NCBI GenBank assembly: GCA_938014885.1
Contig: CALLQI010000022.1
Coordinates: 121,679-185,678 of the forward strand
Direction of reading: 5' to 3'
Source: an uncultured bacterium
GTDB lineage: Bacteria > Planctomycetota > UBA8742 > UBA2392
DNA length: 64,000 nucleotides
Of the stretch, positions 572 through 20,203 are shown one piece after another. How positions within the stretch are numbered: the first letter of the stretch is position 1; every line of letters starts with the position of its first letter. Both the position numbers and the translations under genes were made by a program. The notes under the pieces were generated by a model. The model saw only the letters and a program-made list of their open reading frames with translations, was not told the DNA's origin and made no database searches.

Positions 572-2521
572 ATGCAGAAATGCCCCGCTTGCGCCACCGA
601 GAATCCTGACAAGGCCAAGTTCTGCATTAATTGCGGCGCTGCCCTGTCCGACAGCGCGCCGGGATCAGCCAAGACACCCGACGCCCCCGATGAAATCGGC
701 CGCGTCATCCCCGGCGACGACCTCGTGTTCGAAGCTGAGGCCGTCAGCTACGACCCCGGCACCCTCGTCGCCGAACGTTATCAGGTCGAGCGCGAACTGG
801 GCCGCGGCGGCATGGGCACCGTGCTGCTGTGCCGCGACAAGTTCCAGGAAGATGAATTCTGCTGCCTGAAGGTGATCAACCCGCAGCTGATCGACAACGA
901 AGAACTGGTTGAACGCTTCAAAAGTGAAGGGCGCATCGCCCGCAAGATCCGCCATGCCGCGATCATCGCGACCCACGACATCTTCGAGTGGAAGGGTCGC
1001 TGGCACATCAGCATGGAGTTTTTCCCGGGCATCGTGCTGCGCAAGGTCATCAACGACGCGGACAGCACCGGCCAGGCCGTGCCGCTGAACGACGCCGTGA
1101 CCATGATCGACAAGATTCTGGACGGCCTTACGGCGGCGCACGAAGTGACCGTCCACCGCGACCTGAAGCCCGAAAACCTGATGCTGAAGGGCCAGCCCGG
1201 CACGCCCGATTTCGCGGTGAAGATCCTGGATTTCGGCATCGCCAAGAACTTCGAAGTCAGCAACGCGACCATGGCCGAGGTCGCCATGGGCACCACCGGC
1301 TACATGGCACCGGAGCAAGCGCGCGACGCCGCCAACGTGGACAAGCGCGCCGACCTGTACGCGATTACCGTGATTTTCTACGAGCTGCTGACTGGCCTGC
1401 TGCCCGTCGGCAACTACGAACACCCGACCGCGCTGCGGCCTGACCTGCCGGCCTGGGTTGACGCCTTTGTTGACAAGGGCCTGAAGTCGCGCCCCGACTC
1501 GCGCTACAGCAGCGCCGAAGAAATGCGCCGCGCGCTGCTTACCGGCGGCCTGACTGACCCCAAGTCTGCGCCCATCCACACCGGCGAAATCCACACCAGC
1601 CCGCTGGTGGACGAAAAGAAGGCCGAGGAAAAGGAAGGCCGCTGGCTGCGCGTGAAGCTCATGGACAGTCGCCAGGGCCTGGTGCACGCCGTGGCCTACG
1701 CACCCGACGGCACCTGCTTTGCCAGCGCCGGTGAAGACAACACGATCAAGATCTGGGACGCCAAACGCCTGAAAGTCACCGCTGAATTGCGCGGCCACAC
1801 GGCATGGGTGAAATCGCTGCACTTCAGCCCGGACTCGCGCCTGCTGGCCAGCGGCAGCGGCGACACCAAAGTCCGCCTGTGGGACACCCGCACCTGGCGT
1901 GAGGCTGCCGTCATCGAAGGCCATGAAACACCGGTAATCGGCGTGCGCTTCAGCCCCGATGGCCACTTCCTGGCAAGCTCCGGTGCGGACCAGACGGCCG
2001 TGCTGTGGGACGTCAGCAACTTTGAGCCCGTGCGCGACGTGCACGGCGGTGGCATCGCAGCGCTGAGTTTCAGCCCCGACGGCCTGCTTCTGGCCAGCGG
2101 CACACTGAACCAGAGTGTCGTGGTGTGGGACATGATGACCGGCGACGTGCTGGTTGAGTTGAAGGGGCACCGCGGCACGATCACGAGCCTGAGCTTCAGC
2201 CCCGACGGCCGCTTTTTGCTGACGGGCAGCGACGACACAACCATCCGCGTGTACGAGATACCGGGGTTTGAACGCACGCTCAAGATCCGCGACCACAGCA
2301 GCCTGGTGTGGTCGATCGCCTTCAGCCAGGACTCGCGGATCATGGCCAGCGCCGGCGAAGACCGCATCCTGGTGCTGCGCCGCCTGCCGGACTGGGACGA
2401 AATCGCCACCTTTGCCGACCACCCCAAAGGCGTCAGCGGCGTGGCATTTGCACCCGACGGCCGACAGATGGTCAGCGCCGGGCGCGAGGGCGGCATCGCG
2501 GTCTACTCATTACAGGTCTGA
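572..2521 (+). CDS. Ser/Thr protein kinase with N-terminal zinc-ribbon and C-terminal WD40 beta-propeller
   Basis: CPACATEN..CINCG zinc ribbon; Hanks kinase motifs HRDLKPENL, DFGIAK, GTTGYMAPE; at least 7 WD40 repeats (GEDNTIKIWD, GSGDTKVRLWD, GADQTAVLWD, ...). Confidence 0.9.
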   Translation: MQKCPACATENPDKAKFCINCGAALSDSAPGSAKTPDAPDEIGRVIPGDDLVFEAEAVSYDPGTLVAERYQVERELGRGGMGTVLLCRDKFQEDEFCCLKVINPQLIDNEELVERFKSEGRIARKIRHAAIIATHDIFEWKGRWHISMEFFPGIVLRKVINDADSTGQAVPLNDAVTMIDKILDGLTAAHEVTVHRDLKPENLMLKGQPGTPDFAVKILDFGIAKNFEVSNATMAEVAMGTTGYMAPEQARDAANVDKRADLYAITVIFYELLTGLLPVGNYEHPTALRPDLPAWVDAFVDKGLKSRPDSRYSSAEEMRRALLTGGLTDPKSAPIHTGEIHTSPLVDEKKAEEKEGRWLRVKLMDSRQGLVHAVAYAPDGTCFASAGEDNTIKIWDAKRLKVTAELRGHTAWVKSLHFSPDSRLLASGSGDTKVRLWDTRTWREAAVIEGHETPVIGVRFSPDGHFLASSGADQTAVLWDVSNFEPVRDVHGGGIAALSFSPDGLLLASGTLNQSVVVWDMMTGDVLVELKGHRGTITSLSFSPDGRFLLTGSDDTTIRVYEIPGFERTLKIRDHSSLVWSIAFSQDSRIMASAGEDRILVLRRLPDWDEIATFADHPKGVSGVAFAPDGRQMVSAGREGGIAVYSLQV

Positions 2522-7570: not shown

Positions 7571-7725
7571 TGTGTCTCCTTTGGGTGGTGGTGCCGCGCT
7601 CATTGATACCGCGCACACCTGCCGGCGCGAAGCATCGCTGACAGGTAGCTATGCAACCCGGAGAGACAATTTTCGCTTATGCGTATACGCAACAGGCGGC
7701 AATCGGCGCTTATTGCGAAGTCGCG

Positions 7726-10700
7726 CTATGGGCGACGCTTGCGCGGGGCCACGCCACGCGGGCGCCGCTGCGAAGACTCTTTGCCCGGCAGCTTTGGTTT
7801 GGCGTGCGGGCCTGACACCGGCTTGCCCGGCGCGGCCTTGGCAAGGGCCGGGCTACTGAGTTTGCGGGGGGCAGGTGCGGGCACAGTCGCCGGTGCCGGC
7901 ACGGTCGCCGGGGCCGGGGGCGGCGCGGCCACGATCGACGGGGCACTGGGCGGGCGTTTGGGCACCATCACGCCCGTCGGCGCGGTGGGCTTTGCAACCG
8001 GCGTAAAACCCGTGCGCGGGAACGGTACTTTGGGGCGCGCGGGGTCTGAGGCCTTTTCCAGTTTCACGCGCTTGCGCCGGCCCGAACGCGGCAGGTTGGG
8101 CTCAAGCTCTTCCAGCAGGTCGTCGGCCTCATCTTCAAGTTTGCGGCTGAGGTCATTGCCCAGCTCATGCAGCGAGGCCTTGGCCATTTCGATGATCTTG
8201 CGGGCTTCGTCTTTCTGGCCGACTTCGATCAGTGCTTTCGCGAGGCCGAGTTCCGACTCGGCCATCGGTTCAAAGCCATTGGCGCGGCGACCGGCGCAGC
8301 CGGTGCGCAGCAGGTCGATCCCCTTCAGGATGTCGCGGCGGTTGCGGGCTTCGCGGCCTTTCTCGATCCACGCGTTGCCGAGATTGCCCTGCACAACACT
8401 GACCGTGCGCAAATCCTTCACTTCCAAGCTCAGCTTCAGGGCATTCTCCAGTGCTTCAATGGCCGGGCCCGCGCGCTTCAGCTGCAACAGCATCGCTGCC
8501 ACGTTGCTTTCGGATATGGCCTCGGTCTGCTTTGAGCCCAGGTCGCGCGACAGTTCGCGGGCGCGCATGGCCACGCGAAGGGCCTCTTCGTCGCGATCCT
8601 GTTCGTGGTAGATGCGGGTCAGCGTGTTCAGGTGCTGCGCTTCCAGGTTGGTTGCGCCGACTTCGCGGGCTACACGCATCGCGCGCAGCAGGCTGGCTTC
8701 ACTGACCTGCTTGTCGCCCAGAAGGTGCGCGTTCAGGCCGATGCAGGCAAGCGCCTGGCTTTCAATTTGGTGATCGGCGTCTTCTTGCGCCAGCTTCAGC
8801 GCCTGCTGGTGATGCTCAAGCGCCTCGGCGTGCCGCCCGCCGCGCTGCAGGAACCAGCCCATCGAGTAATGCGCCTGCGAAAGTGTCGCGATGTCGCCCG
8901 ACTCCCGCGCATACCGCAGCGCCAGCTGGAAGTGTTCCATCGCTTCGGCCTTGTCACCGCCGGTGGCGATGTACGTGCCCAAGCGGTCGTGGCCGCGCGA
9001 AAGCAGCGTCGGCGAAAGCCCCTTGATCGCAAGCGCCTGCAGGGCCCGTTCGCGCGCGCGCTCGACGTTGCCGCTTTTGCTGTACCCGTAGCTCATGATC
9101 AGCAGCTTGCGGTACAGCGCAATGCCGTCGCACTTAATGCCCTCCAGCATCTCCAGCACGGACTCGGTCGAGGTGAAGATGCGCAGGGTGCCGTCGATGA
9201 TGTGCACCCACACCCACTCTTCGCTGCCTTCTTGAATGCCCGCCAGCGAGCGTCGCACCAGCTCAAGCGCCAGGTCTTTCTCGCCCAGGCTGTTCTGCAC
9301 GGGCGCCGCGATGACGGCCGCCCAGGCGCGCCATTCGGGCCGGTGTGTACGCCGCGCCACCTGCAGCAGGCCCTGCATTTCAAGCCGTGTGCGCCTGCGG
9401 CCTTCCAGTGAGCCCTCACGGGTGTTCTTCCACCACCACTTGCGCACGTACTCGATCAGCGACTTTTCAAACAGCTGCTCGGTCGGTTCCATCGCGCCCA
9501 TCGATTGCAGCCTCGCCAGCGCGAACAGGCGCACGGACTCATACAGCCGGAAGCGCCGCTCGCCCTCCAGCTCTGTCAGCCGGTCAAACGTGATCAGATT
9601 GTGCCGCAGCAGCGCGCGCACCAGTTCTTCGGGGCTGGCACCGGGCAGCACCTTCAGCATCAGCTCAGCAACATCAAGCTGGAAGCCGTCGGGGAACACG
9701 GACAGCATCATCAGCGCCCGCTGCTCGGTGTCATCCAGCAGCTCGAAACTCCAAGCCAGCGTGCCTTCAAGCGTGTCGCGTGAGGCCGCGCCGTCACGCT
9801 TCAGCAGCTCAAAACGCTGGTCCAGCTTTTCCAGTATCTGGCGCGGCGACATCACGGCCACGCGGGCAGCCGCCAGCTCAATCGCCTGCGGGATGCCATC
9901 CAGACGCGCCACGATGGCGGCAATGTCGCGGACATTGCCGCCATCGACGCGGAACGACGGGTCGTTCTCCTGCGCGCGCTGCGTGAACAGCGCGACACTG
10001 GGCAGCGACATCAGCTCGGCACTGGGGCGCTTTTCGCCTTCGCGCGGGGTGTCCAGCGGCTTCAGCACCACGCTGGTTTCACCGGGAAACTCAAGCGCAA
10101 AGCGGCTGGTCAGCACCACCCGCAGCGTTTTCACCCGCGACAGCCACTCCTGCACGCAGCGGCTGACTGAGTCGGCACTGGCCTCACAGTTATCCAACAA
10201 CAGCAGCGTCGCCGAACCCGCACCCTCCAGCGCCGCCGCGATGCGCAGCCCAAGACTTGCGGTACCCTCACCCACGCGCAAAGCCTGCGCGGTCAGGTTG
10301 CATACGCTGGCCACGTCACGGGCGTTGGCGAGGTCCACATACACCATGCCGCCGGGGAAACGTTCCTGCACCTGCTCGGCAGCGGCCACGGCAACGCGAG
10401 TCTTGCCGGCGCCGGCGGGGCCCGAAACGGTGATCGCACGGGCCTGGTCCGACCGCAGCAGCGCCACCACCTGCTCCATGTCGCGGTCGCGACCCACCAA
10501 AGTCGTGTCGTAGCGCGGCAGGTTGTCTTTGGAGTCGCGGGTCTCTGCCACCAGCGGCTTAAACTTCGGCGGCGGCTGCAACACGTGCAGCGCCAACAGC
10601 GTTTCGTCGTCGGATTGCGTGGCCCCCGCGCGGAACCCGTCAACGTCCGCGCGGATGGCCTCAACCATGCCGTGCAGCGGCATGCCCTGCCTTGCGCCGA

Positions 10701-11343
10701 TCGTGCGGTACAGGCGTTCTTCGCCGTACATCTCTTTCTTGTGGTTGAAGGCTTCGGTGATGCCGTCGGTGTACAGCAGCAGTAAATCGCCGGGGGTCAG
10801 CTGGAAGAACTCTTCGCGCAGATGCTTTTTCAGCTCCGTCGATTGCAGCACGCCCAGCACCGGCGCGTTGCCGTGGGTCCACTTGTCGCGCAGCTTGCCG
10901 CCGCGCATCAGGATTGGCGGGTTGTGCCCCGCACTGGCAAAGCAGAAGCGCCGGTTGCGGATGTCCAACATGCCGTACAGCGCCGACAAGAACATCCCGC
11001 GCGGTAAGTCGGCCCGGATGCTGTCATTCACCTCAAGCAGCACCTGTTTGGGCGAAAGGCAGCCACGGCCACAGATCTGGAGTACTTTCTTGGCCGCCGC
11101 CATCAGCAATGCTGCCGCGGCGCCGTGCCCGCTGACGTCAGCCATCACGATGCCGAGTCGCCAGCTATCGACCATGATGAAGTCGTAGAAGTCGCCGCCC
11201 AAAAGGTCGCAGGGCCGGTACGAAGCCGCCAGCTCAAGGCCCGAAACGTTGGGCACTTCAGGAAGCATGGACAACTGCACCTTCCGGGCGCGTTCGAGCT
11301 CGGAGGCGCTGTTGCCCATCATCGCGGATCGTTCAAGTCCCAT
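7726..11343 (-). CDS. PP2C/SpoIIE-type phosphatase - STAND (NB-ARC-like) P-loop NTPase - TPR protein with basic Pro-rich C-terminal tail
   Basis: N-terminal PPM motifs GGDFYDF, ADVSGHG, YTDGITE, QSDDETL; Walker A GPAGAGKT and Walker B LLLLDNCE; 8 or more TPR-like helical repeats; tail PKRPPSAPSIVAAPPPAPATVPAPATVPAPAPRK...PRKRRP. Confidence 0.85.
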   Translation of the reverse strand: MGLERSAMMGNSASELERARKVQLSMLPEVPNVSGLELAASYRPCDLLGGDFYDFIMVDSWRLGIVMADVSGHGAAAALLMAAAKKVLQICGRGCLSPKQVLLEVNDSIRADLPRGMFLSALYGMLDIRNRRFCFASAGHNPPILMRGGKLRDKWTHGNAPVLGVLQSTELKKHLREEFFQLTPGDLLLLYTDGITEAFNHKKEMYGEERLYRTIGARQGMPLHGMVEAIRADVDGFRAGATQSDDETLLALHVLQPPPKFKPLVAETRDSKDNLPRYDTTLVGRDRDMEQVVALLRSDQARAITVSGPAGAGKTRVAVAAAEQVQERFPGGMVYVDLANARDVASVCNLTAQALRVGEGTASLGLRIAAALEGAGSATLLLLDNCEASADSVSRCVQEWLSRVKTLRVVLTSRFALEFPGETSVVLKPLDTPREGEKRPSAELMSLPSVALFTQRAQENDPSFRVDGGNVRDIAAIVARLDGIPQAIELAAARVAVMSPRQILEKLDQRFELLKRDGAASRDTLEGTLAWSFELLDDTEQRALMMLSVFPDGFQLDVAELMLKVLPGASPEELVRALLRHNLITFDRLTELEGERRFRLYESVRLFALARLQSMGAMEPTEQLFEKSLIEYVRKWWWKNTREGSLEGRRRTRLEMQGLLQVARRTHRPEWRAWAAVIAAPVQNSLGEKDLALELVRRSLAGIQEGSEEWVWVHIIDGTLRIFTSTESVLEMLEGIKCDGIALYRKLLIMSYGYSKSGNVERARERALQALAIKGLSPTLLSRGHDRLGTYIATGGDKAEAMEHFQLALRYARESGDIATLSQAHYSMGWFLQRGGRHAEALEHHQQALKLAQEDADHQIESQALACIGLNAHLLGDKQVSEASLLRAMRVAREVGATNLEAQHLNTLTRIYHEQDRDEEALRVAMRARELSRDLGSKQTEAISESNVAAMLLQLKRAGPAIEALENALKLSLEVKDLRTVSVVQGNLGNAWIEKGREARNRRDILKGIDLLRTGCAGRRANGFEPMAESELGLAKALIEVGQKDEARKIIEMAKASLHELGNDLSRKLEDEADDLLEELEPNLPRSGRRKRVKLEKASDPARPKVPFPRTGFTPVAKPTAPTGVMVPKRPPSAPSIVAAPPPAPATVPAPATVPAPAPRKLSSPALAKAAPGKPVSGPHAKPKLPGKESSQRRPRGVAPRKRRP

Positions 11344-11455
11344 GAGCCCTACAGTTTAGGAACTGTCAGAAACGATTGTCATCACCAATGCGTCATATTC
11401 CAGCACCTATCGATCAAGACTTCGCGTGGCCGTCGGCTACCGGTAGAATACCCCC
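11344..11455. promoter_or_regulatory. divergent intergenic region shared by the STAND-phosphatase gene (minus) and the AAA ATPase operon (plus)
   Basis: 112-bp gap between the two start codons; lower GC than flanks (tcagaaacgattgtcatcaccaatgcgtcatattccagcacctatcgatcaag). No promoter motif confirmed. Confidence 0.35.
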
Positions 11456-12952
11456 ATGGAACGCGCCGACCCGGTCTCCGAACTTGCGCTGCTGATCCGC
11501 ACCCGGCACCCGCTGATCACCATCGAAACCGTGGAAGAAGCCCGCGCGTTCGAGTTCGTGATGCGCGCCTGCCACCGCGTCAACCTGCACAAGTTCCGCT
11601 GGAGTGTCACGCGCGGCCTGCACCGCACCCGCCCCCAGTTTGCAGAGCCGGTGATGGAGACCGAAGAACCCCGCCGCGCGCTGGCACACCTGCTGCACGG
11701 CGACCTGCCCGGCATATACGTGTTCGCCGACCTGATGCCGCACCTGACCACTGCCGTGGACCAACGCCTGCTGCGCGAAGTCGTCGAACACGCGGAACGC
11801 AAAGGCCAGACCATTATCCTGATTGAGCAACGATTGAATCTGCCGCCGGCCCTTGAGCGTCTGGCTGTACCCTTCGACCTCGCGTTACCCGACGAAGCTG
11901 CCATACGCGACCTGGCGTCGCGCACCTTCAAGGAAATCGGCGAGATCGCTCATGTGAAGGTCGAAATCAAGCGCTCGGAACTGGACGACCTGCTGCGCAA
12001 CCTGCGCGGCCTGACCACCAATGAAGTACGGCGCGCGATCTGGCGCGCCGCACTGGATGATGGCCGCATCGACGCCGCCGACGTAAAGGGCGTGCTGCAG
12101 CTCAAGCAAGAGAAGCTGCGCGAAGGCGGCATGCTGGAGTACATCGAGCCCGGCATCAAGCTCGACGACATCGGCGGGCTGAACCGGCTGAAAGAGTGGC
12201 TGCGCCTGCGTGAGCGCGCACTGACGCCCGAAGCCCGCGAGTTCGGCCTGGCCCCGCCGCGCGGCATTCTGCTGCTGGGTGTGCAGGGCGCGGGCAAAAG
12301 CATGTGCGCCCGCGCCGTGGCCGCGGCCTGGAACCTGCCGCTGCTGCGCATGGACCCGGGTGCCCTGTACGACAAGTACGTCGGCGAGTCCGAGAAGCAG
12401 CTTCGGCGCGCATTGCGCACCGCCGAGGCCATGGCGCCGCTGGTGCTGTGGATCGACGAGATTGAGAAGGGATTCGCCAGTGCGGCCTCGCAAAGCACCG
12501 ACGGCGGGCTTTCGCAGCGCATGTTCGGGACGCTGCTTTCCTGGATGCAGGACAACCGCGCGCCGATTTTTCTGGTGGCCACAGCCAATGACATCTCCGC
12601 GCTGCCGCCTGAGTTGATGCGCAAGGGCCGCTTTGACGAAATCTTTTTCGTGGACCTTCCTGACGCGCCCGCCCGCGAGCAGATACTCGCGGTGCACCTA
12701 GAGCGCCGCAAACGCGACCCCAAGAACTTTGATCTCAAGGCGCTTGCTGCCGCATCCGACGGTTTCAGCGGCGCTGAGCTGGAACAGGCCATTGTCAGCG
12801 CCCTGTACGCAGCGTTTGCGGCCGGCACGGAACTCAGCACGCAAGGCTTGCTGGATGAGCTCGGCCGCACACGCGCGATCAGCGTTACCATGGCAGAGCG
12901 CATCACCGAGTTGCGCGACTGGGCCGCCGACCGCTGCGTGCCCGCCAACTGA
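11456..12952 (+). CDS. AAA+ family ATPase (classic clade) with about 230-aa N-terminal domain of unknown function
   Basis: Walker A LLLGVQGAGKS, Walker B VLWIDEIE, second region of homology with Arg fingers ATANDISALPPELMRKGRFDE, sensor-2 SGAELEQA. Confidence 0.85.
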   Translation: MERADPVSELALLIRTRHPLITIETVEEARAFEFVMRACHRVNLHKFRWSVTRGLHRTRPQFAEPVMETEEPRRALAHLLHGDLPGIYVFADLMPHLTTAVDQRLLREVVEHAERKGQTIILIEQRLNLPPALERLAVPFDLALPDEAAIRDLASRTFKEIGEIAHVKVEIKRSELDDLLRNLRGLTTNEVRRAIWRAALDDGRIDAADVKGVLQLKQEKLREGGMLEYIEPGIKLDDIGGLNRLKEWLRLRERALTPEAREFGLAPPRGILLLGVQGAGKSMCARAVAAAWNLPLLRMDPGALYDKYVGESEKQLRRALRTAEAMAPLVLWIDEIEKGFASAASQSTDGGLSQRMFGTLLSWMQDNRAPIFLVATANDISALPPELMRKGRFDEIFFVDLPDAPAREQILAVHLERRKRDPKNFDLKALAAASDGFSGAELEQAIVSALYAAFAAGTELSTQGLLDELGRTRAISVTMAERITELRDWAADRCVPAN

Positions 12953-13013
12953 TGACCGATTGCCCGGCCTTAGCTAAGCTGCCCGGGAACACCACTCCAG
13001 CCACAGGAGCCCC

Positions 13014-13388
13014 ATGTCGTCCACCCAGCTTGACCAGTTTGCCGCCGCCGCGCTGCAAGGCCTGCTTACCCGCGGTGGCTTCACAGACTACGACGAACTT
13101 GCGCGTGAGGCCTTCCAGATCGCCCGGGCGATGATGGCTGAGCGCCTGCGCCAGTCGGAATTGCCGGATAGTGAAGGCGAGGCCGGAGACCTGATGGAAG
13201 CCGCGATTGACTCGCTGGAGCTGCCGCTGCGCGTGATCAAGAAGCTGCGTGCGCTGGGTGTGAGCACTGTGCGCGACCTGACGCTGACTACGGAGAAAGC
13301 GATCCGCGCCACCGGCCTGAAGGACGAGAGCATGGACGAAATCCGCCAGGCGCTGCACCGGCTGGGGCTCAACATCGCCAGCTCGTAG
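13014..13388 (+). CDS. free-standing RNA polymerase alpha-subunit C-terminal-domain (alphaCTD)-like protein
   Basis: C-terminal 55 aa IDSLELPLRVIKKLRALGVSTVRDLTLTTEKAIRATGLKDESMDEIRQALHRLGL matches the alphaCTD helix-hairpin-helix consensus (compare E. coli RpoA LELSVRSANCLK..GIHTVGDLV..LLKTPNLGKKSLTEIK). Confidence 0.6.
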   Translation: MSSTQLDQFAAAALQGLLTRGGFTDYDELAREAFQIARAMMAERLRQSELPDSEGEAGDLMEAAIDSLELPLRVIKKLRALGVSTVRDLTLTTEKAIRATGLKDESMDEIRQALHRLGLNIASS

Positions 13389-13433
13389 GCCACGCGGTCT
13401 GGCACGGTGCACTGGCCTTGCTAAACCCTCCGC

Positions 13434-14333
13434 ATGGCGATGCGCATTGTGGTGGCCGGGGCAACGGGCAGCGTGGGACGGGCGGTGATTCGCCTCGCCC
13501 GCGCGCGTGGCCTGCACACCGTCGCGATTGGCCGCGATGCCGCACGCCTGCAAACTGCCGGTGCCGACGAAGCGCGCGAAGTCAGCTTCCAGCAACCCGA
13601 ATCCCTGCGCGCCGTGATGCTTCCCGGCGATGTCGTCTTTTCATCCCTTGGGGCCAGCGCTTCGCCCAGCCCCTTCATGGGGCGCAAACGCTATCGCGAC
13701 GTGGACGTGCCGCTGAACATGGCGCTTCTTGAATCCGCGAAGCAGGCCAGCGCGGCCCGCTTCTTGTACGTGTCGTTGGCCTTTGGCCGCGATTTGCGCC
13801 AGTACGCCTTTGCCGACGCCCACGAACAGGTCGTTGATGCCGTGGTCGCCTCCGGGCTGCGCTATACGATCCTGAGGCCGACCGGCATATTCAGCACGTT
13901 CCGCCGCCTGTGGGGCTTTGCCAAGCTGGGCGTATTCCCTATCCCCGGCAACCCGGATTGCCGCAGCAACCCGATCCATGAAGACGACATCGCGTCCAAC
14001 GCGCTGGATTCATTGGCCCGGGGCGATGAGCAACTCGAGATCGGCGGGCCGGAAGTCTTCACCCGCCGCGAAATCGGCCTGCAGATGTGCCAGGCAGCCG
14101 GCTGGAAGCACGGAAGCACGCTGCGCATCCCGAAGTGGGTGCACCTTGGCAGCGCGCATCTGCTGGCGATCATCAGCCCGCGCGTGCTGGACATGCTGCG
14201 TTTTTACTGGGCGATCTCGGTCTTCGACAACATCGCGCCCGTGGCCGGGCAGCGTCGGCTGGCCGACTACTACACCGAGGCAGCGCGCCACAAGCCGGGC
14301 GTGCTGGGCGGCCTGCATCGTTCAGGCTGGTAG
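13434..14333 (+). CDS. NAD(P)H-binding NmrA-like / atypical SDR family protein
   Basis: N-terminal Rossmann motif MRIVVAGATGSVGRAV; size and overall pattern typical of NmrA/HSCARG-like reductases. Confidence 0.7.
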   Translation: MAMRIVVAGATGSVGRAVIRLARARGLHTVAIGRDAARLQTAGADEAREVSFQQPESLRAVMLPGDVVFSSLGASASPSPFMGRKRYRDVDVPLNMALLESAKQASAARFLYVSLAFGRDLRQYAFADAHEQVVDAVVASGLRYTILRPTGIFSTFRRLWGFAKLGVFPIPGNPDCRSNPIHEDDIASNALDSLARGDEQLEIGGPEVFTRREIGLQMCQAAGWKHGSTLRIPKWVHLGSAHLLAIISPRVLDMLRFYWAISVFDNIAPVAGQRRLADYYTEAARHKPGVLGGLHRSGW

Positions 14334-14343
14334 CTGTCGTTGG

Positions 14344-17300
14344 CTATCCGATGCGCGGCGGGCGGCGACGCTTGCGCGGCACCTTTCCGGTGGGGCTTGC
14401 GCCCTTGCGCTTCACGGGCAGCGGGGCCCTTGCCGGGGTCGGGGCCTGCGCCGGACTTGATTCCACCATCGAATCCAGCAGTTTTCGCGCGCGTTCGGCC
14501 AGTGACGTGCCGTACTGGTCGCCGCGATGTGCAGCCGCATCCAGTGCCTGCTGCGCGAAGGTCTTGGCCTCTTGCTTCTTGCCCGACTCAAGCAGCAGCT
14601 CCGCCAGTGAAACTTCGCCGTTGATCAGCGGGTCGAAACCCAGCCGCCTGCGCTCGGTACAGGCGCGCTGCAGCGCGTCGGTCGCGGCCAGCAGATCTTT
14701 CTTGTCGCGATCGGCACGCCAGCGAATCGCGTGGACTTCACCGATGTTGCTCAGCACACCCAGCGCCGTACGCAGGTCCTTCAACTCAAGCAATGTCTGG
14801 TAGGCCTGCTTTAGTGATTCCAGTGCTGAGCTGCTGTCGCCCAGCTCGACCTTGATTGCCGCGATGTTGCTCTCGGCCACGGCCTCAACAACGCGGTCGC
14901 CGAATTCGCGGGCGACGTCGCGGGCCTGCACACACGAATTCAGGGCTTCCTGCACGCGTCCTTGTTCGAAGTACACGTTGGCCGCGCCATTCAGGCACTT
15001 GGCCAGCGTGCCCGGGCTGCCGGCCTCGCGCGCGATGCGGATGCTGCGCTGGATTGCGGCTTCAGCCTGGTGGCGCTCGCCGATCAGGTTGCTTGCACCC
15101 GCGAGTCCGGCCAGTGCCTGCGCTTCCTGCACCCGCATGCCGCGGTCCTGTGCGATGCGGATCGCGTCGGTGAAGTGCGGCAGCGCGCCGGAAGGATCGC
15201 CGGTGCGCTGGTGCCACTGCCCGAACTGGATCAGCAGCCGCACGTGCAGCTCGCGATACTTCTTGTCGATGCAGACCTTCAGCGCTGACTCAAGACAGGC
15301 GTGCGCCTCGCGGTGGCGGCCGATGCGCTCATACAGGGTGCTCATGTACGAATTCACCCGCGCGCCGTTAATCGCGCCCAGCAGGCCCGAGTTCATTGCC
15401 GCGGTGAAGCAGCGCGCCGAGTCCGACATGCGCCCAAGCTGCATCAGCGCGCGGCCGCGCAGAATGTTGGCGTGGCACAGCGCGAGGCCATCGCCTTTGA
15501 ACTCGGACAGCAGCCGCTCGGTCTCTTCGGGCGATGAGGCCAGCTTCAGCTCGGCCTCGGTAACTTTCAGCCAGTGCCACTCTTCGCAGCCGGGCAGCAG
15601 GCCGTCGTGGGCCTTGAGCACCATTTCCGTGGCGCGCTGGGTTTCGCCCTGCGTTTGCAACGCGGGGGCCAGCATCACGGTGGCGGTGGCGCGGGCCTCA
15701 GGCAGGCTGGTCGAGCGCGAGATTTCTTCCAGGCCCGCGGCTTCCATGCGCAGGCGCTCTTCGGCCTGCACGTGGCCTTCTCGCTTGTCGGTGCTCCACC
15801 AGCGCAGTGCGTAGCCAAGCAGCGCGGCCTCTTGCCGCCGCCGCGTGGCGTCAAGCTGGCCGGCGGCCTTCAGTTTCTCGAGCATGAACAGCCGGAAGGT
15901 CTCAAACAGCGCGTAACGCGGCTCGTTCTCAAGTTCATGGATCGCGTCGGTGTACAAAAGGCTATGGCGCGAAAGGCGCTGCAGCAGCTCGGGCGGTTTG
16001 GCCGGTGCCAGGGCTTTCAACAGTTCGGCGGCGACATCGGGGCCGAACCCGTCGGGGCAGCAGGCAAGCATGCCGGCGGCCGCGCGTTCCGTTTCATCGA
16101 GCAGCTCGTAACTCCAGGCCAAGGCGCCGCGCAGGGTTCCCTTCTCGCCTTCGGCCCGCAGCAGGTCCAAACGCTCATCCAGACGGTCAATGATCTGGCG
16201 CGGGCTCAGCAGGCCGGCGCGCACGGCGGCAAGTTCAATGGCGTGCGGGATGCCATCGAGGCGCTGGCAGATTTCGACCACCTCGCGATAGTTGCTGTCG
16301 GTGATGGCAAAGCCCGGGTCTTCCCGACGCGCGAACTCCGCGAACAGCATCACGGCGGGCAGCGCACGTGCTTCCTCAAGTGAGAAACGAATCTTGCGGG
16401 TGCCGGAAAGCTGCATCAGGGGCTTCACCGCGATGCTGCTTTCACCGGGCAAATCCAGTTGCGCGCGGCTGGTGGCAATCACGCAAACACCGGGGGCGCG
16501 CTGGCGCCACTCTTCGACGCAGCGGGCAACGGCCTTCGTGCAGCCCTCACAGTTGTCGAGCAACAGCAGGATCGGCCCGGGCGCGTTGCCCAGCGCCACG
16601 CCTACGCGATAGCCAAGGCTGGCATCTTCCTGGCCCAGGTGCAGCACGTTGGCCACGCGCCGGCAGATGTCGGCGACGGTCTTGGCCGCTTGCAACTCGA
16701 CGTAGCACACGCCGCCCTTGAAGTGATCGCGCGCGCGCGCGGCCACGTGAATCGCCAGCCGCGTTTTGCCTACGCCGGCGGGGCCGGTCAGCGTGACCAC
16801 CGTACCGGGCTTGCCGGTCAGCAGGGCCAGCAGCGCTTCTACGTCGCGTTCGCGGCCGATCAGCGGGGTGCGGTATTCGGGCAGCCATGTCGGCGCCACG
16901 GTCACGGGCGGGGTCAGTGCGGTTTCGGGCGCACCCTCGACGCGGATGGCGACAAGCGTTTCGTCGTCGGTCAGCGGGGTGCCCGCGCGCAGCGCGTCGG
17001 TAGTGCGGGCCAGCCGTGTCAACAGTTCAGCGGCTTTGCCTGACTGGCGCATGGTCTCATGCAGTTTCTCGCGACCAAGCGTGTTGCCATTCCGATCTGC
17101 CGCCAGCAGCAGGCCGTCAGTGTACAGCAACAGCATGTCGCCCGGTTCAAGTTGCAGCGAATGCTCAGCCAGCTTGCCCTCAAGAATCCGCGATGGAAAC
17201 AGGCCCAGTGCCGGGCCGGCCGCACCGGGCGCGACGTCGGCCACTCCCCGCCGCAGCAGGCTTGGCAGGTGGTGCCCGGCGCTGACCCAGGTGATGCGGT

Positions 17301-17742
17301 GGGTCTGCGTGTCCAGAATGGCGTACAAGATGGTGACGAACATTTCGCGCGGCAGGTCCGCGCGGATCGCCTCGTTCACTTCCGACAGCGCCTTCAGCGG
17401 CGACAGGCAGCCCCGCGCGCAGATCTGCAGTGCCTTCTTGGTTGAGGCCATCATCAGGGCTGCCGCCGCGCCCTGGCCTGAAACGTCGGCCACGGCGATC
17501 CCGAGGTGACGCTCGTCGATGCGGATGAAGTCGTAGAAGTCGCCGCCCAGGCGTTCGCTGGTGCGGTACTCGGCCGCGAACTCAAGTCCTTTGGCGTGGG
17601 GCAGGTCGGGCAGCATGGTGCGCTGCACATCGCGCGCGCGCTCGATGCTGCGTGTGTGGTGCCCCTTGCCGTCGCGACTGTCTGCCATGCACGCTCGGTT
17701 TGCCCAGGGACTTCGATTGGATAAGGCCGCGAAGCCTAGCAC
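14344..17742 (-). CDS. PP2C/SpoIIE phosphatase - STAND NTPase - TPR protein, paralog of 7726..11343
   Basis: GGDFYDF, ADVSGQG (His to Gln), YTDGLL, TDDETL; Walker A GPAGVGKT, Walker B ILLLLDNCE; TPR array; tail PVKRKGASPTGKVPRKRRRPPRIG. About 60% identity to the other copy across the phosphatase domain by eye. Confidence 0.85.
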   Translation of the reverse strand: MLGFAALSNRSPWANRACMADSRDGKGHHTRSIERARDVQRTMLPDLPHAKGLEFAAEYRTSERLGGDFYDFIRIDERHLGIAVADVSGQGAAAALMMASTKKALQICARGCLSPLKALSEVNEAIRADLPREMFVTILYAILDTQTHRITWVSAGHHLPSLLRRGVADVAPGAAGPALGLFPSRILEGKLAEHSLQLEPGDMLLLYTDGLLLAADRNGNTLGREKLHETMRQSGKAAELLTRLARTTDALRAGTPLTDDETLVAIRVEGAPETALTPPVTVAPTWLPEYRTPLIGRERDVEALLALLTGKPGTVVTLTGPAGVGKTRLAIHVAARARDHFKGGVCYVELQAAKTVADICRRVANVLHLGQEDASLGYRVGVALGNAPGPILLLLDNCEGCTKAVARCVEEWRQRAPGVCVIATSRAQLDLPGESSIAVKPLMQLSGTRKIRFSLEEARALPAVMLFAEFARREDPGFAITDSNYREVVEICQRLDGIPHAIELAAVRAGLLSPRQIIDRLDERLDLLRAEGEKGTLRGALAWSYELLDETERAAAGMLACCPDGFGPDVAAELLKALAPAKPPELLQRLSRHSLLYTDAIHELENEPRYALFETFRLFMLEKLKAAGQLDATRRRQEAALLGYALRWWSTDKREGHVQAEERLRMEAAGLEEISRSTSLPEARATATVMLAPALQTQGETQRATEMVLKAHDGLLPGCEEWHWLKVTEAELKLASSPEETERLLSEFKGDGLALCHANILRGRALMQLGRMSDSARCFTAAMNSGLLGAINGARVNSYMSTLYERIGRHREAHACLESALKVCIDKKYRELHVRLLIQFGQWHQRTGDPSGALPHFTDAIRIAQDRGMRVQEAQALAGLAGASNLIGERHQAEAAIQRSIRIAREAGSPGTLAKCLNGAANVYFEQGRVQEALNSCVQARDVAREFGDRVVEAVAESNIAAIKVELGDSSSALESLKQAYQTLLELKDLRTALGVLSNIGEVHAIRWRADRDKKDLLAATDALQRACTERRRLGFDPLINGEVSLAELLLESGKKQEAKTFAQQALDAAAHRGDQYGTSLAERARKLLDSMVESSPAQAPTPARAPLPVKRKGASPTGKVPRKRRRPPRIG

Positions 17743-17778: not shown

Positions 17779-18803
17779 TCAAGCCTTGTTGAGCGCGTGC
17801 AGCTCGCGCAGGGTCTGCGGGTCGCATTCGAGCGTCAGGATGTCGCCCGCCTGCACCGTGTTGCTGGTTGGCGGGTGAAACACGGCGCCTTCGCCGCGCT
17901 TTTGGCTGATCACGACCAGCTGGAAGCGCTTGACCATGTCCCCCACCGTCAGCTTCGTCATCTCGCAGTCGTTGACCACGGTGATGCGCGCGACCACCAG
18001 CAGGCGGCCGTCGACGTAGAAGCTGTTGATCACGCAGGGGTCGATGCTGGCCGTGGCGAACAAAGGTGCCGATAGCATGGCCGTGCTGAACGCCAGGTGG
18101 ATGTTCATGGTGTCGCGGATTTTCTCGGCCAGTTCCTGGTCGTACATGCGCAGCACCACCCGGATGTCCGGCTTGACCTTGCGGGCATCGATGGCGAGCT
18201 CGAGGTTTGCCAAGTCGTCGTCGGTGCAGCAGATTACGCTGCGCGCGCGCTCGACGCCCATTTCTTCGAGGATGCCTTCTTCGCGATGGGTGCCGACGCG
18301 CACCGGCACGCCGTGATGGCGCGCGTAGGCGAAGTTGGGGCTGTGCTCGTTCTTTTCGATCACCACAACTTCCTGCTTCAGCTCCACCAGCTGCTGCAAC
18401 ACGCGAAAGCCGACCTTGCCGAGGCCGAACAGGATGACGTGGTTATGCAGAGTTGAAGTCATGGCTCGCACCCATTCCGGAGACTTTTCATCGCGCCGAA
18501 ACGCGTAGTAGGAAAACCGCACCAGGCCGTCCAGCACCACGACAATCCCGGTCAGCGGCAGCAAGTAGTACAGCACTTCAAGCAGCCAGTGGCTGGGCCA
18601 ATCCAGCACGGGCTCGCCGGTCAGCAACGCAAACGTGGTCCAGATTGACTGCGACAGTGACAGCGGCTGGTCATACAGGTTGTGAAACGCGACGCCGCCC
18701 AGCAGCACCACCGCCACCGCAAAGAAGAACAGCGGCAGAAACTGCCGTATCGGCCGGCGCAGGTAGTACAGCCAGGCCTGAAGTCTGCGTTTGCGTGTGC
18801 GCA
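17779..18803 (-). CDS. RCK/TrkA-N plus TrkA-C domain membrane protein (putative ion channel with non-canonical pore region)
   Basis: Start taken at internal ATG (MRTRKRRLQAW...); 2-3 TM segments, then NAD-binding-like RCK fold (VILFGLGKVGFRVLQQL) and a TrkA-C-like tail; no canonical TVGYGD filter. Confidence 0.65.
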
Positions 18804-18830
18804 TGTTTGCCCGCCGGGATAACCCGTGCC

Positions 18831-19475
18831 CTACCCGGCCCACTTTGCCCGAAGTTGGTCGTTGATGCCAATGCGCGTCACCTCGCGCCCGCCGATCGAC
18901 ACCCCGGCCTGCGAGTTCAGTACCGTCAGCACCAGCGCCGGCCGCGCCATGCTGGCGGCGAAGTCGTGTACCGTGGCGCGTTCGCGCTGGGCCAACAGGG
19001 CGGCGATGCCGCCGGCAAGTTCCGACTCGGACACTTTTGCGGCCGCGCGCCACAGGCGCAGTTCGCGCCAGGCCTGCACTGTGGCCCAGCCCGCGAACAG
19101 CAGCACGACGCGACTTAGCTTGATGAGGAAGATCTCAATCCAGACCCATGCTTCTGCCGGCGCGTAGGCGTCGCCTTCTTCGCCGATCTCGATCGTTTTC
19201 AGCCACAGCGGCCCATCGGCGAGTGCAAGGCGCTTCACGTTGCGCCAGTTGACCCAGGTGCCGATGACCCAAAAGACAATCACCAGCGCGTAGCCAGCCG
19301 GGATAATCCACGGCTCCGAGCGCAGCAGCAGCGCTAGCAAGTACACAAACAGCAGCCCCGTGAAACCGCCCGCAAGCAGCCCCACAAACGAGTAAAACGC
19401 CGCCCCCACCAGCGCATGGTGGCGCGCGTCCTGCTTCATGACCCGCGCGGCGTGGAAGTGGTCGTCCGGGTTCAT
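18831..19475 (-). CDS. membrane protein, unknown function
   Basis: ORF with 4 predicted TM helices; start overlaps the upstream gene stop by 4 bp (ATGA), suggesting translational coupling. Confidence 0.5.
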   Translation of the reverse strand: MNPDDHFHAARVMKQDARHHALVGAAFYSFVGLLAGGFTGLLFVYLLALLLRSEPWIIPAGYALVIVFWVIGTWVNWRNVKRLALADGPLWLKTIEIGEEGDAYAPAEAWVWIEIFLIKLSRVVLLFAGWATVQAWRELRLWRAAAKVSESELAGGIAALLAQRERATVHDFAASMARPALVLTVLNSQAGVSIGGREVTRIGINDQLRAKWAG

Positions 19476-20203
19476 TGCAGCATCCGCTCCAGGTCAGAAC
19501 GCAGGTCGCTGTTCAGAGCAACACACGGGAAGCCGCGCGCCGTGAACAGCACGCCCGGGATGTGCTGCAACGCCTTTAATGCCGCCGCCAGTTGCGGCTC
19601 GTTCACTTCGGCCTCAAGGTCATACAGGCTTATCCGCCGCGCCGCCGTGTACAGGAAAATCAGCACTCGTGTGGCCGGCCACGGATCAGCGGCGCGCAAG
19701 GCTCCGGCATCCCAGAAGTGCTGTACAGCAAGGCCGAACAGCCAGGCCGGGATCGTGAGCAGATTGACCAGCGTGTTGCCTTCTTCGGCCTCGCGGGTGT
19801 CCTGGGTTTCAACCAGCGCGCTTGGCGTGAACTGTTCGTCGATGATGCGCACTGTGCCTGAGGCGAGCTTCGTGACATGGCCCTTCTTGCGCCCCCATAT
19901 CCAGTACACGGGATGCATGAGTATCAGAACCACCAGAGGAAGGATGAAGACCCAGACGCCCAGCACATCGCCCGCATGCGCACCCGCATAGCGACCACCC
20001 CTGGCGACGACCGCGACGGACAGCCACACCAGAATCACGTACACAACCACATGCGCGACAACAGACAGCGCCGTCAACGCCGCCACCGAATACAGGCTGT
20101 GCAAGGCATGTTTGCGAAGCTCGCGCGTCAGCCAGCCATGCACAAACTCGGTGGCCTCGCCACGCCGCAAGCCTTCCATCGTCTGGGAGGTGCCCCCTGC
20201 CAT
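19472..20203 (-). CDS. membrane protein, unknown function
   Basis: Long hydrophobic segments (VVAHVVVYVILVWLSVAVV; ILPLVVLILMHPVYWIW); first gene of a same-strand four-gene cluster ending with the STAND phosphatase. Confidence 0.5.
   Translation of the reverse strand: MAGGTSQTMEGLRRGEATEFVHGWLTRELRKHALHSLYSVAALTALSVVAHVVVYVILVWLSVAVVARGGRYAGAHAGDVLGVWVFILPLVVLILMHPVYWIWGRKKGHVTKLASGTVRIIDEQFTPSALVETQDTREAEEGNTLVNLLTIPAWLFGLAVQHFWDAGALRAADPWPATRVLIFLYTAARRISLYDLEAEVNEPQLAAALKALQHIPGVLFTARGFPCVALNSDLRSDLERMLQ

Follow-up and report, generated by a model that had tools for sequence, protein, structure and literature searches.

Paired Planctomycetota proteins with a predicted PP2C phosphatase as the N-terminal effector of an AfsR/MalT-like STAND switch

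Transcription factors, cyclases, caspase recruitment and cell-death effectors are all known to be under the control of STAND ATPases. These ATPases switch between closed and open states and are autoinhibited through their TPRs (PMC6468293); in AfsR, the N-terminal effector is inhibited by the NOD-TPR portion and ATP relieves this inhibition (PMC10936776). AfsR and the other 'large SARP' or COG3903-type STANDs, a group that also takes in mycobacterial cyclase-ATPase-LuxR and kinase-STAND proteins, are laid out as an effector (about 270 aa), then a NOD (about 350 aa), an arm and a TPR region (PMC10936776), and PH0952 (PDB 6mfv) and MalT join a TPR or SUPR sensor to a DNA-binding effector. In RsbU, RsbP, SpoIIE, SiaA, RssB(Pa) and Rv1364c, an N-terminal sensor or regulatory domain leads through a coiled-coil linker to a C-terminal PP2C domain (PMC12143880), and regulated dimerisation via alpha0-alpha2 has recently been proposed to activate RsbU-type PPMs (PMC12143880).

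Here we describe two genes, A and B, in a 64,000-nucleotide stretch of DNA from an uncultured member of the Planctomycetota (hereafter, the window). Our analysis indicates that their products are probably signal-transducing phosphatases, in which an RsbU/SpoIIE-class PP2C serves as the N-terminal effector of an AfsR/MalT-like STAND switch that is ligand-gated and activated by oligomerisation. The layout is identical to that of AfsR and its COG3903-type relatives, but a PP2C phosphatase takes the effector place that is filled there by a DNA-binding SARP, cyclase, LuxR or kinase domain, the predicted output is protein dephosphorylation rather than transcription or cAMP, and the proteins belong to Planctomycetota, not Actinomycetota. 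PH0952 and MalT resemble A and B as STAND ATPases with a repeat sensor, though they differ in their DNA-binding effectors and are only 12-16% identical in sequence.

A sequence-only reading of this DNA had recognized two giant, paralogous proteins here, and both the reading frames and the paralogy are confirmed. Gene A encodes 1205 aa (7726..11343, minus strand) and gene B is an open reading frame of 1132 aa (14344..17742, minus strand); codon-position GC in the two (GC3 0.81 against GC2 0.46-0.49) follows the pattern of real genes, and the two proteins are 39% identical over an end-to-end alignment. Since all close orthologs start with M[AT]DSRDGKG (P0032, P0033, P0121-P0124), translation of gene B probably begins at Met19 (position 17688), giving a protein of 1114 aa. 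AlphaFold modelled gene A (aa 1-1100) with a pLDDT of 90.8 and gene B with a pLDDT of 88.9 and a pTM of 0.71. Pfam matches and predicted folds agree that the order proposed from the sequence, PPM/SpoIIE phosphatase, STAND NTPase and then TPR, holds in both proteins.

The N-terminal phosphatase domain had been called apparently intact in both copies, and every metal-binding motif is indeed present. In gene A the domain, a SpoIIE/RsbU-class PPM, spans aa 15-255 including an N-terminal alpha-0 helix (10579..11301, minus strand) and matches SpoIIE PF07228 over aa 61-254 (E 1.1e-45, 156.4 bits); in gene B it spans aa 29-268 in ORF numbering (16939..17658, minus strand), with a PF07228 match over aa 77-268 (E 2.2e-43, 148.9 bits; cutoff 25 in both cases). 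Gene A carries the motifs GGDFYD, ADVSGHG, SAGH, YTDG and DDET. The metal-coordinating Asp motifs (GGDFYD, ADVSGxG, YTDG and DDxT) are kept in A and B and invariant across 68 homologs, and residues D51, D54, D69, G72, G74, D193, G194, D245 and D246 do not vary in either the 37- or the 68-sequence alignment. Foldseek matched the gene A domain to SiaA (TM 0.87) and RssB (TM 0.83). The PP2C regions of both AlphaFold models, which resemble SiaA, RssB and SpoIIE, adopt the PP2C beta-sandwich fold with alpha1/alpha2 switch helices, preceded by a short alpha-0 helix (residues 2-25 in A and 29-42 in B). By their conserved residues, the PP2C domains of A and B are apparently catalytically competent and are predicted to be phospho-Ser/Thr phosphatases.

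The two copies do differ, as had been noted, in carrying ADVSGHG (A) and ADVSGQG (B). We rejected the GQG of gene B as a sign of an inactive enzyme, since active Bacillus subtilis SpoIIE has Asn at this position. Escherichia coli RssB has a degenerate PP2C fold that acts as a protein-binding module, and gene B, or both proteins, might likewise be a pseudo-phosphatase adaptor. We regard this as extremely unlikely: along with the SpoIIE precedent, every metal-binding Asp is intact in B, and conservation along the protein peaks in PP2C.

Placing PP2C first is, as the earlier reading held, the opposite of the classical RsbU/SpoIIE order. Among stand-alone PP2C domains, the nearest (42-46% identical) are all C-terminal, behind N-terminal sensor regions, whereas in A and B only an alpha-0 helix of 14-24 residues precedes PP2C and the NTPase regulator lies C-terminal to it. 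A and B differ further from RsbU-type systems in having no adjacent STAS, RsbW-type or SiaB/SiaC-type partner gene.

The NOD, comprising a nucleotide-binding domain (NBD), a helical domain and a winged helix, occupies aa 281-640 of gene A (9424..10503, minus strand) and aa 293-655 of gene B (15778..16866, minus strand). The proposed motifs, GPAG(A/V)GKT and hhhhDNCE, were found in both: gene A has Walker A GPAGAGKT, Walker B LLLLDNCE, the sensor TSR and the GxP motif DGIPQAIELAA, and gene B has GPAGVGKT, LLLLDNCE, TSR and DGIPHAIELAA. Pfam matches to AAA_16, AAA_22 and NB-ARC at about aa 282-414 fall mostly under their gathering scores, with AAA_22 alone exceeding its cutoff. The Walker residues G311, G313 and K314 are invariant in the 37- and 68-sequence alignments, and D384 is invariant in the former and at least 90% conserved in the latter; R414 is retained in clades I and II, and the sensor-1 Arg is missing from some members of clade III. 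Both models contain the tripartite NBD-HD-WHD fold of STAND proteins, with an arm and a repeat sensor after it, and the best Foldseek match to the NOD was PH0952 (6mfv; E 7.6e-17), with NRC2, MalT, Apaf-1 and CED-4 also matched.

AfsR/COG3903-type proteins are the best sequence relatives outside the family, 30-40% identical over the NOD, and share with A and B the Walker B DNCE and the GxP motif 'G-[ILVM]-P-x-A-[ILV]'. Among the 50 next-best relatives, none with a PP2C domain, Walker B hhhhDN[CFA]E occurs without exception and 49 have the GxP motif, and the next-best NOD relatives bear N-terminal SARP, adenylate cyclase, LuxR, XRE or kinase effectors. What is common to AfsR is the NOD-TPR portion only: scores against the NCBIfam AfsR model, 45-61 bits, fall far below its cutoff of 1430, and Pfam searches of A and B gave no Trans_reg_C (PF00486) or BTAD (PF03704) match at E <= 0.01. 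The NOD-TPR of A and B thus falls within a clade that swaps N-terminal effectors, for which effector-first order is normal. The earlier emphasis on this order was therefore right in its frame, the STAND logic of sensor, nucleotide switch and effector, though the arrangement is not unusual for this NOD clade.

The arm and TPR superhelix, the putative sensor, follow at aa 641-1080 of gene A (8104..9423, minus strand) and aa 656-1094 of gene B (14461..15777, minus strand). TPR_12 matched both proteins, exceeding its gathering score only in B, and weak TPR_MalT matches lie in the C-terminal third of each; the gene A region is modelled as an all-helical hairpin array, and in comparisons of the AlphaFold models the superhelix of both proteins matches MalT domain III. 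Conservation between orthologs declines along the protein, from about 66% in PP2C through about 47% in the NBD to 35-42% in the arm and TPR, the least conserved region of gene A. The Lys/Arg/Pro-rich basic tail described earlier is evident from composition in both proteins, whose last 70 residues include 14 K/R and 18 P in A and 15 K/R and 9 P in B, and is predicted to be disordered. In gene A it spans aa 1081-1205 (7729..8103, minus strand), is modelled with pLDDT <50 over aa 1084-1100, and ends in RRPRGVAPRKRRP, a terminal motif conserved across clade I; in gene B it spans aa 1095-1132 (14347..14460, minus strand) and ends in KVPRKRRRPPRIG. C-terminal ends differ by clade (basic tail, Zn ribbon or none), and the clade-I tail may anchor the protein at an anionic surface, either membrane or nucleic acid.

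Established STAND and PPM biology suggests how such a phosphatase might be switched. At rest, A and B would be closed, ADP-bound monomers with the NOD held shut by the TPR-arm. A ligand (small molecule, peptide or protein) would bind the fast-evolving TPR superhelix, leading to ADP/ATP exchange, opening and multimerisation. Multimerisation could in turn gather the N-terminal PP2Cs into the alpha0/alpha1/alpha2 dimer that activates RsbU-type phosphatases. Classical RsbU-type proteins receive their dimerising signal through an N-terminal coiled-coil linker; the regulator of A and B is C-terminal, so the geometry of activation may differ. Since the oligomeric state of AfsR is unchanged by ATP binding in vitro (PMC10936776), release of autoinhibition without multimerisation is an equally possible route to activation in A and B. 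The active form would then dephosphorylate a phospho-Ser/Thr substrate of the partner-switching type, encoded elsewhere in the genome.

Partner-switching substrate and kinase genes are frequently unlinked. No STAS or anti-sigma protein was found among the scanned neighbours and small ORFs of the window, as the sequence-only reading had said, and no HATPase_c-type kinase adjoins A or B. Its further statement that no kinase partner is adjacent needs qualifying, because a gene for a Hanks Ser/Thr kinase-WD40 protein (572..2521, plus strand) lies 5.2 kb past the 3' end of gene A. This gene belongs to a conserved syntenic block found in the window, a close relative and five other loci; it was recovered by Pfam in all five and is 81% identical in three distant loci compared by tblastn. 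By inference only, it is a candidate opposing kinase.

Such a kinase raises the possibility that PP2C acts mainly on phosphosites in its own NOD and TPR, in cis or in trans within an oligomer. The Hanks kinase-WD40 would write these sites, the phosphatase would be a built-in regulator, and the true output would be scaffolding through the TPR or basic tail. The precedent is AfsK, which phosphorylates AfsR (of the same NOD-arm-TPR layout) on conserved NOD and TPR residues including the Walker A Thr, altering ATPase activity (PMC10936776); the recurrence of the kinase in the block at six clade-I loci besides the window also fits, as do the clade-specific C-terminal ends, which suggest an additional output or localisation function. 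We nonetheless find this self-directed role doubtful, because SpoIIE/RsbU-class PP2Cs normally oppose GHKL (RsbW-type) rather than Hanks kinases, and an RsbW-like HATPase_c_2 was the sole kinase domain fused to the PP2C of a near relative (one of eight scanned). Moreover, the Hanks kinase gene lies beyond the flotillin genes and is not co-oriented, and no such kinase occurs near those paralogs of clades II and III that lie at other sites. A ligand-gated phosphatase acting on a separate substrate remains our preferred interpretation.

A and B had also been described as bracketing a small operon. Three plus-strand genes do sit between them, encoding an AAA+ protein (11456-12952), an RNA polymerase alpha-CTD-like protein (13014-13388) and an NmrA-like protein (13434-14333), but these genes (11456..14333) are divergent from A and convergent with B, and the opposite strands mean that they share no operon with either. 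The suggestion that the pair and these genes form one signalling or immunity unit draws on several features: A and the AAA+ gene diverge across 112 bp, an arrangement retained in the closest relative; an alpha-CTD-like gene is present in every clade-I block and, in two genomes, directly follows a clade-III paralog (gap 0-3 bp); and the AAA+ protein weakly matches IetA/IteA models. Comparison across loci did not sustain it. Outside the window, only that closest relative (74% identical), whose contig stops short of gene B's position, has the AAA+ gene next to gene A, and the five clade-I loci that are more distant lack it; other genomes carry the alpha-CTD-like and NmrA-like genes at different places in the conserved syntenic block; and in one locus (L002) the two paralogs form a direct tandem without any intervening gene. 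In loci lacking a paralog, the alpha-CTD-like gene simply follows a T2SSE gene, and so tracks the syntenic block rather than the family, while the IteA score (85 bits against a cutoff of 510) reflects generic AAA similarity. Together with the opposite strands, these observations make a single unit unlikely; the intervening genes may instead have arrived through lineage-specific rearrangement and would not be obligate partners.

The position of the phosphatase genes themselves is more stable. Upstream of gene B and co-directional with it, 90 bp from its probable start, is a channel-like 2TM-RCK gene (TrkA_N/TrkA_C with two hydrophobic helices; about 341 aa; 17779..18804, minus strand). The order RCK gene, PP2C-STAND, flotillin recurs in the window and all five other main clade-I-group loci, with RCK in the same upstream position in L002, L083, L085, L091 and L092; a seventh, deep-branching clade-I locus is without this context. 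Genes of this main group are vertically inherited at a fixed chromosomal site beside 2TM-RCK and flotillin genes.

This setting bears on whether A and B are anti-phage or conflict sensors with NLR-like (Avs or bNACHT) logic and a protein phosphatase as effector, an interpretation we consider very unlikely. They do share with Avs and bNACHT the effector, NOD and repeat-sensor layout and a sensor whose evolution outpaces that of the effector; repeated duplication has given the family at least three paralog clades per genome, and the NOD structurally resembles those of plant NLR NRC2 and Apaf-1. The TPR would on this account sense an invader protein and PP2C reversibly rewire host phospho-signalling instead of killing the cell, a mode of action to which we give very little credence; to our knowledge, no protein phosphatase effector has been described for prokaryotic STAND immunity. 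The locus differs from those of Avs and bNACHT in having a fixed, syntenic place among housekeeping genes, shared by the window and five other loci, and in lacking island context; no integrases or defence genes lie nearby. The divergence of gene A (44-49%) is inside the range of its non-essential neighbours (29-84%), and PP2C is a reversible, non-toxic signalling enzyme rather than a cell-killing effector. PADLOC matched A and B to no STAND, Avs or NLR model, returning only generic TPR hits and marginal mad8 (E 0.002) and TRIP13 (E 0.006) hits in the NTPase region, and viral and phage collections held no full-length relative of the family. The immunity-like reading is accordingly not upheld, with no indication that these genes define a new immune system.

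Among 1.84 billion protein representatives, contiguous PP2C-NOD fusions fall into about 40 clusters when grouped at 50% identity, and all named members are from Planctomycetes or Planctomycetota. The family is small, vertically inherited, uncharacterised and confined so far to this phylum. The same pairing of a SpoIIE PP2C with a COG3903-like NOD-TPR recurs in other proteins in different forms: P0156 (HTH_31-AAA_16-TPR-SpoIIE) and P0159 (NB-ARC-TPR-GerE-SpoIIE) differ from A and B in their C-terminal PP2C and added DNA-binding domain, and P0056 (SpoIIE-STAND-TPR-Sigma54_activat-HTH_8) in its extra sigma-54 activator. These represent independent fusion events, indicating that the pairing arose more than once.

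A and B therefore present known kinds of NOD-TPR and PPM in a new combination, within an entirely uncharacterised family. If our interpretation is correct, a PP2C-gating STAND would add reversible protein dephosphorylation to the known STAND outputs. These proteins would also provide a natural test of the recently proposed activation of RsbU-type PPMs by regulated dimerisation, with the regulator being an NTP-driven oligomerisation engine on the opposite end of the catalytic domain. Signalling in Planctomycetes is poorly understood, and the fixed site between an RCK channel and flotillin offers a concrete place to seek the physiological signal in these organisms.

The two large open reading frames proposed in the sequence-only reading, gene A (7726–11343, 1205 aa) and gene B (14344–17742, 1132 aa), are both present on the minus strand, and their third-position GC of 0.81, against 0.46–0.49 at second positions in a window of 64% GC, indicates that they are genuine genes. 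B probably starts at Met19 (position 17688), the start found in all close orthologs, which would give a protein of 1114 aa. The two proteins share 39% identity over their whole length, as expected of the paralogs they were taken to be, and tblastn found no third copy within the window. Pfam searches placed a SpoIIE domain (PF07228) at the N-terminus of each protein, at aa 61–254 of A (E 1.1e-45) and aa 77–268 of B (E 2.2e-43). P-loop matches at ~aa 282–430 (AAA_16, AAA_22, NB-ARC, nSTAND5, and NACHT) were weaker than those to SpoIIE, and AAA_22 alone exceeded its gathering score; TPR_12 matched the last third of both proteins, above the gathering score only in B, and TPR_MalT matched weakly. 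Every motif quoted in the initial description was recovered in A and B, as were the basic tails; these are low-complexity Pro/Lys/Arg-rich stretches, predicted to be disordered and encoded on the minus strand (7729–8103 in A and 14347–14460 in B). Neither NCBIfam nor PADLOC assigned a specific family to either protein.

Structure prediction was consistent with this architecture. AlphaFold2 models built with a 68-sequence alignment reached a pLDDT of 88.9 and a pTM of 0.71 for full-length B, and a pLDDT of 90.8 for aa 1–1100 of A. Both models begin with a short helix, a PP2C beta-sandwich, and a low-confidence linker of ~25 residues, after which come a Rossmann-like nucleotide-binding domain (NBD), a helical domain, a winged helix, an arm, and ~15 helical hairpins. 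Foldseek matched the NOD (STAND NTPase)–TPR portion to the archaeal STAND protein PH0952 (6mfv; E 7.6e-17 for B and 1e-14 for A), and further structural matches to the NOD included NRC2, MalT, Apaf-1, and CED-4.

The PPM metal-binding residues (D51, D54, D69, D193, D245, and D246 in A numbering), within the motifs GGDFYD, ADVSGxG, YTDG, and DDxT, do not vary in either the 37- or the 68-sequence alignment of the family, and neither do the Walker A core residues G311, G313, and K314. The Walker B Asp (D384) shows no variation among the 37 sequences and is conserved in at least 90% of the 68, and the sensor-1 Arg (TSR) is retained in family clades I and II. The GQG of B, where GHG is usual, is common to B orthologs down to 81% identity and is therefore a fixed change rather than an error. 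Since active B. subtilis SpoIIE carries Asn at this position (SDGMGNG, from an alignment to solved structures), the substitution does not imply a dead enzyme; that B, or both proteins, are pseudo-phosphatase adaptors is most improbable given the intact metal-binding residues. At the level of their sequences, A and B demonstrably combine a predicted intact phosphatase with a predicted intact NTPase, arranged in the STAND manner of AfsR, PH0952, and MalT.

The effector–NTPase–sensor order had been singled out as STAND-like and as the reverse of that in classical phosphatases. The reversal is real: the nearest stand-alone PP2C domains (42–46% identical) are all C-terminal, preceded by regions such as HAMP, GAF, or zinc-finger-like segments, and one of these relatives also carries an RsbW-like HATPase_c_2 kinase domain as a fusion. 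The STAND layout is likewise present, but the order is not unusual for this NOD clade. Once members of the PP2C-bearing family are set aside, the sequences most similar to A and B come from COG3903-type proteins labeled 'predicted ATPase', with N-terminal domains that include adenylate cyclase, SARP (AfsR-like), LuxR, XRE-HTH, and Ser/Thr kinase; all 50 of the non-PP2C relatives examined share with A and B the Walker B motif hhhhDN[CFA]E, and 49 of the 50 their GxP motif. AfsR consists of SARP (1–270), NOD (271–618), arm (619–777), and TPR (778–993) segments (PMC10936776), the same layout as in A and B with PP2C replacing SARP, and the effector of PH0952 is also N-terminal (PMC6468293). Because AfsR, PH0952, and the COG3903-type relatives share N-terminal effectors, the effector-first order is the rule for this STAND clade; the novel feature of A and B is their effector type (PP2C), not their domain order.

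A first sequence search returned ~70 clusters (90% identity) that combine a SpoIIE domain with NTPase or TPR domains; those bearing a name are all labeled 'SpoIIE family protein phosphatase [Planctomycetes/Planctomycetota]' or, at JGI, 'predicted ATPase'. When 1.84 billion representatives were scanned exhaustively with HMMER, using the stretch of A across the PP2C–NOD junction (aa 40–520) as query, ~40 clusters (50% identity) showed one continuous match over PP2C and NOD. A neighbor-joining tree and the C-terminal ends distinguish at least three clades, and members of several clades are found within single genomes. Clade I includes A, plus B on a long branch, and its members alone carry a Pro/Lys/Arg tail with a conserved polybasic motif at its end, of the type RPRGxAPRKRRP (examples are RRPRGVAPRKRRP, PRRRPRGY, and PRKRRRPPRIG). 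Clade-II proteins lack a tail, and those of clade III terminate in a CxxC...CxxC zinc ribbon. The same pair of modules has been fused independently in three homologs from outside the window: a 1521-aa Planctomycetaceae protein (P0056, SpoIIE-STAND-TPR-Sigma54_activat-HTH_8) and two of reverse order (P0156, HTH_31-AAA_16-TPR-SpoIIE; P0159, NB-ARC-TPR-GerE-SpoIIE). A scan of genome contigs with the family alignment settled on the generic motifs GGDFYDF and DVSGHG, so that its 80 loci were all SpoIIE genes of the ordinary kind, drawn from many phyla; of the two with long matches, L072 encodes a classical protein with a C-terminal PP2C and L034 contains SpoIIE genes in tandem. Metagenome contigs searched with the NOD of A and very specific patterns gave no confirmed match, and a family-specific DNA pattern for ERRFxxYE[ST][VI]RxF, which matches gene A in the window, had no match in metagenome or viral contigs.

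Clade-I genes occupy a fixed site. A core running from an RCK gene to a flotillin gene is shared by the window and loci L002, L083, L085, L091, and L092 of other assemblies or bins, while the outer parts of the block are variable, the T2SSE end being present in L083, L085, and L092. The composite block, assembled by tblastn among other methods, starts with DUF502, a ~368-aa protein, and a T2SSE ATPase, continues through a variable part (clade-III paralog, alpha-CTD-like protein, a sirtuin (SIR2) missing from the window, and a ~240-aa membrane protein), and ends with the 2TM-RCK gene, PP2C-STAND, flotillin and Band7 genes, a Hanks kinase-WD40 gene, PSP1, and MetRS. The RCK gene lies directly upstream of the clade-I PP2C-STAND gene and is co-directional in every case, with gaps of 36–94 bp; in the window it is B that fills this position, 90 bp separating the RCK gene from the probable start of B. 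This RCK gene (17779–18804, minus strand; ~341 aa), the 'TrkA' ORF of the window, encodes two N-terminal hydrophobic helices before its RCK domains, a layout resembling that of the channel MthK, and is preceded by a gene for a 243-aa membrane protein (19472–20203, minus strand). Since the RCK and membrane protein genes both precede a clade-I PP2C-STAND gene in the same direction at six loci, the window included, the three genes appear to form a conserved operon. The deep-branching homolog P0026 and the clade-II and clade-III paralogs sit at other sites with unrelated neighbors, and the genes in the remainder of the window have housekeeping roles (thioredoxin, HPr, hibernation factor, cold-shock protein, and tRNA). 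Directly 3' of A, on the same strand after a 107-bp gap, is a gene for a 698-aa PD40/Tricorn_N-like beta-propeller protein (5522–7618, minus strand), which the window shares only with its closest relative and which is absent from the other syntenic loci. The sequence-only statement that no kinase partner is adjacent was too strong, since the Hanks kinase-WD40 gene (572–2521) lies 5.2 kb past A within the same conserved block. A self-resetting STAND that opposes this syntenic kinase is an unlikely reading.

The genes between A and B had been viewed as a small operon forming a module with the pair. They are on the opposite strand, divergent from A (112-bp gap) and convergent with B, and their linkage to the pair is not general across loci. 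Among the loci compared, the AAA+ gene adjoins A solely in a 74%-identical relative; the alpha-CTD-like (13014–13388, plus strand) and NmrA-like (13434–14333, plus strand) genes are older residents of the block, moved and inverted in the window lineage relative to L085; and L002 has two paralogs in direct tandem. These three observations identify the 'bracketed operon' as an outcome of duplication and rearrangement. The alpha-CTD-like protein (stand-alone, 124 aa, resembling the RNA polymerase alpha-CTD) does occur in every clade-I block, at 64–91% identity where compared by tblastn (L083 6733–7104; L091 1290–1664; L085 3889–4299; L092 2106–2537; L002 3984–4358), and lies directly 3' of the clade-III (zinc-ribbon-tailed) paralog in two genomes (0–3 bp gap) and elsewhere directly 3' of T2SSE. 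A true module that includes the intervening genes is quite unlikely.

The AAA+ ATPase itself (11456–12952, plus strand; 498 aa) belongs to the classic clade (CDC48/PAN/FtsH-like), has an uncharacterized N-terminal ~230 aa, and was seen only in the window lineage (the window, the 74% relative, and near-identical contigs). The sole sigma-70-like match in the divergent region between it and A (11353–11382, minus strand), 10 bp upstream of the ATG of A, agrees with only 9 of 12 consensus positions. In two genomes, the clade-II paralog is divergent from a run of three giant ClpB-like AAA_2 ATPase genes (744–1103 aa; L086 1207–9904 and L088 147–8964), which echoes the arrangement of A and the AAA+ gene, and in a third genome (L089) a Lon gene lies upstream of the clade-II paralog. 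At all three clade-II loci examined, the paralog is followed by a gene for a conserved ~108-aa protein (L086 13242–13568, L088 13287–13613, and L089 13308–13637; 65–84% identical); this protein is weakly PTPS/T-fold-like, and kinship with the alpha-CTD-like or STAS proteins was ruled out.

Orthologs of A are 44–49% identical, which is not exceptional: the proteins encoded around it span 29–84% (tblastn), so the overall rate of change in A is unremarkable. Within the protein, identity falls from ~66% in PP2C to ~47% in the NBD and 35–42% in the TPR region, a gradient that fits a conserved output joined to a diversifying sensor. A fast-evolving sensor and paralog expansion in the family would suit the immunity-like role initially suggested, but defense-model, phage-collection, and locus evidence all argue against it. 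PADLOC returned only generic TPR matches and two marginal ones for A and B (mad8, E 0.002; TRIP13, E 0.006), and the AAA+ neighbor fell far below threshold against anti-phage IetA/IteA models (85 bits, cutoff 510). The phage collection contained no full-length relative of A or B, the family DNA pattern was absent from viral contigs, and the clade-I locus is fixed in position, with no integrase and no known defense gene alongside. An immune sensor is thus very unlikely.

The resting state of STAND proteins is a closed, ADP-bound monomer that contacts of the arm and sensor keep shut; opening and multimerization come once an inducer has bound and the nucleotide has been exchanged (PMC6468293). 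In AfsR, the NOD-TPR portion inhibits the N-terminal effector, and ATP lifts this inhibition (PMC10936776), while RsbU-type PPMs are activated by phosphatase-domain dimerization via alpha0, alpha1, and alpha2 (PMC12143880). Taken together, these precedents suggest, by analogy, that A and B most likely function through ligand-triggered, ATP-dependent PP2C activation: a ligand would bind the TPR region and cause ATP-dependent opening or oligomerization, which would pair or free the N-terminal PP2C domains, and the active phosphatase would then dephosphorylate a partner-switching-type phosphoprotein. The conserved RCK channel and flotillin neighbors and the polybasic tail hint, speculatively, at a membrane-proximal or ion-related signal.

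We found no description of a PP2C/SpoIIE fusion to STAND/NB-ARC in the searchable literature, where a single paper uses both terms and refers to PP2C in another context; the original STAND survey (Leipe et al. 2004), outside that scope, may list such proteins, and databases already label them generically. PP2C-STAND proteins add a new type of effector to a well-known family of switches, in a phylum that has received little study; they are not a new kind of system, and the interest of the family lies in its signaling mechanism.
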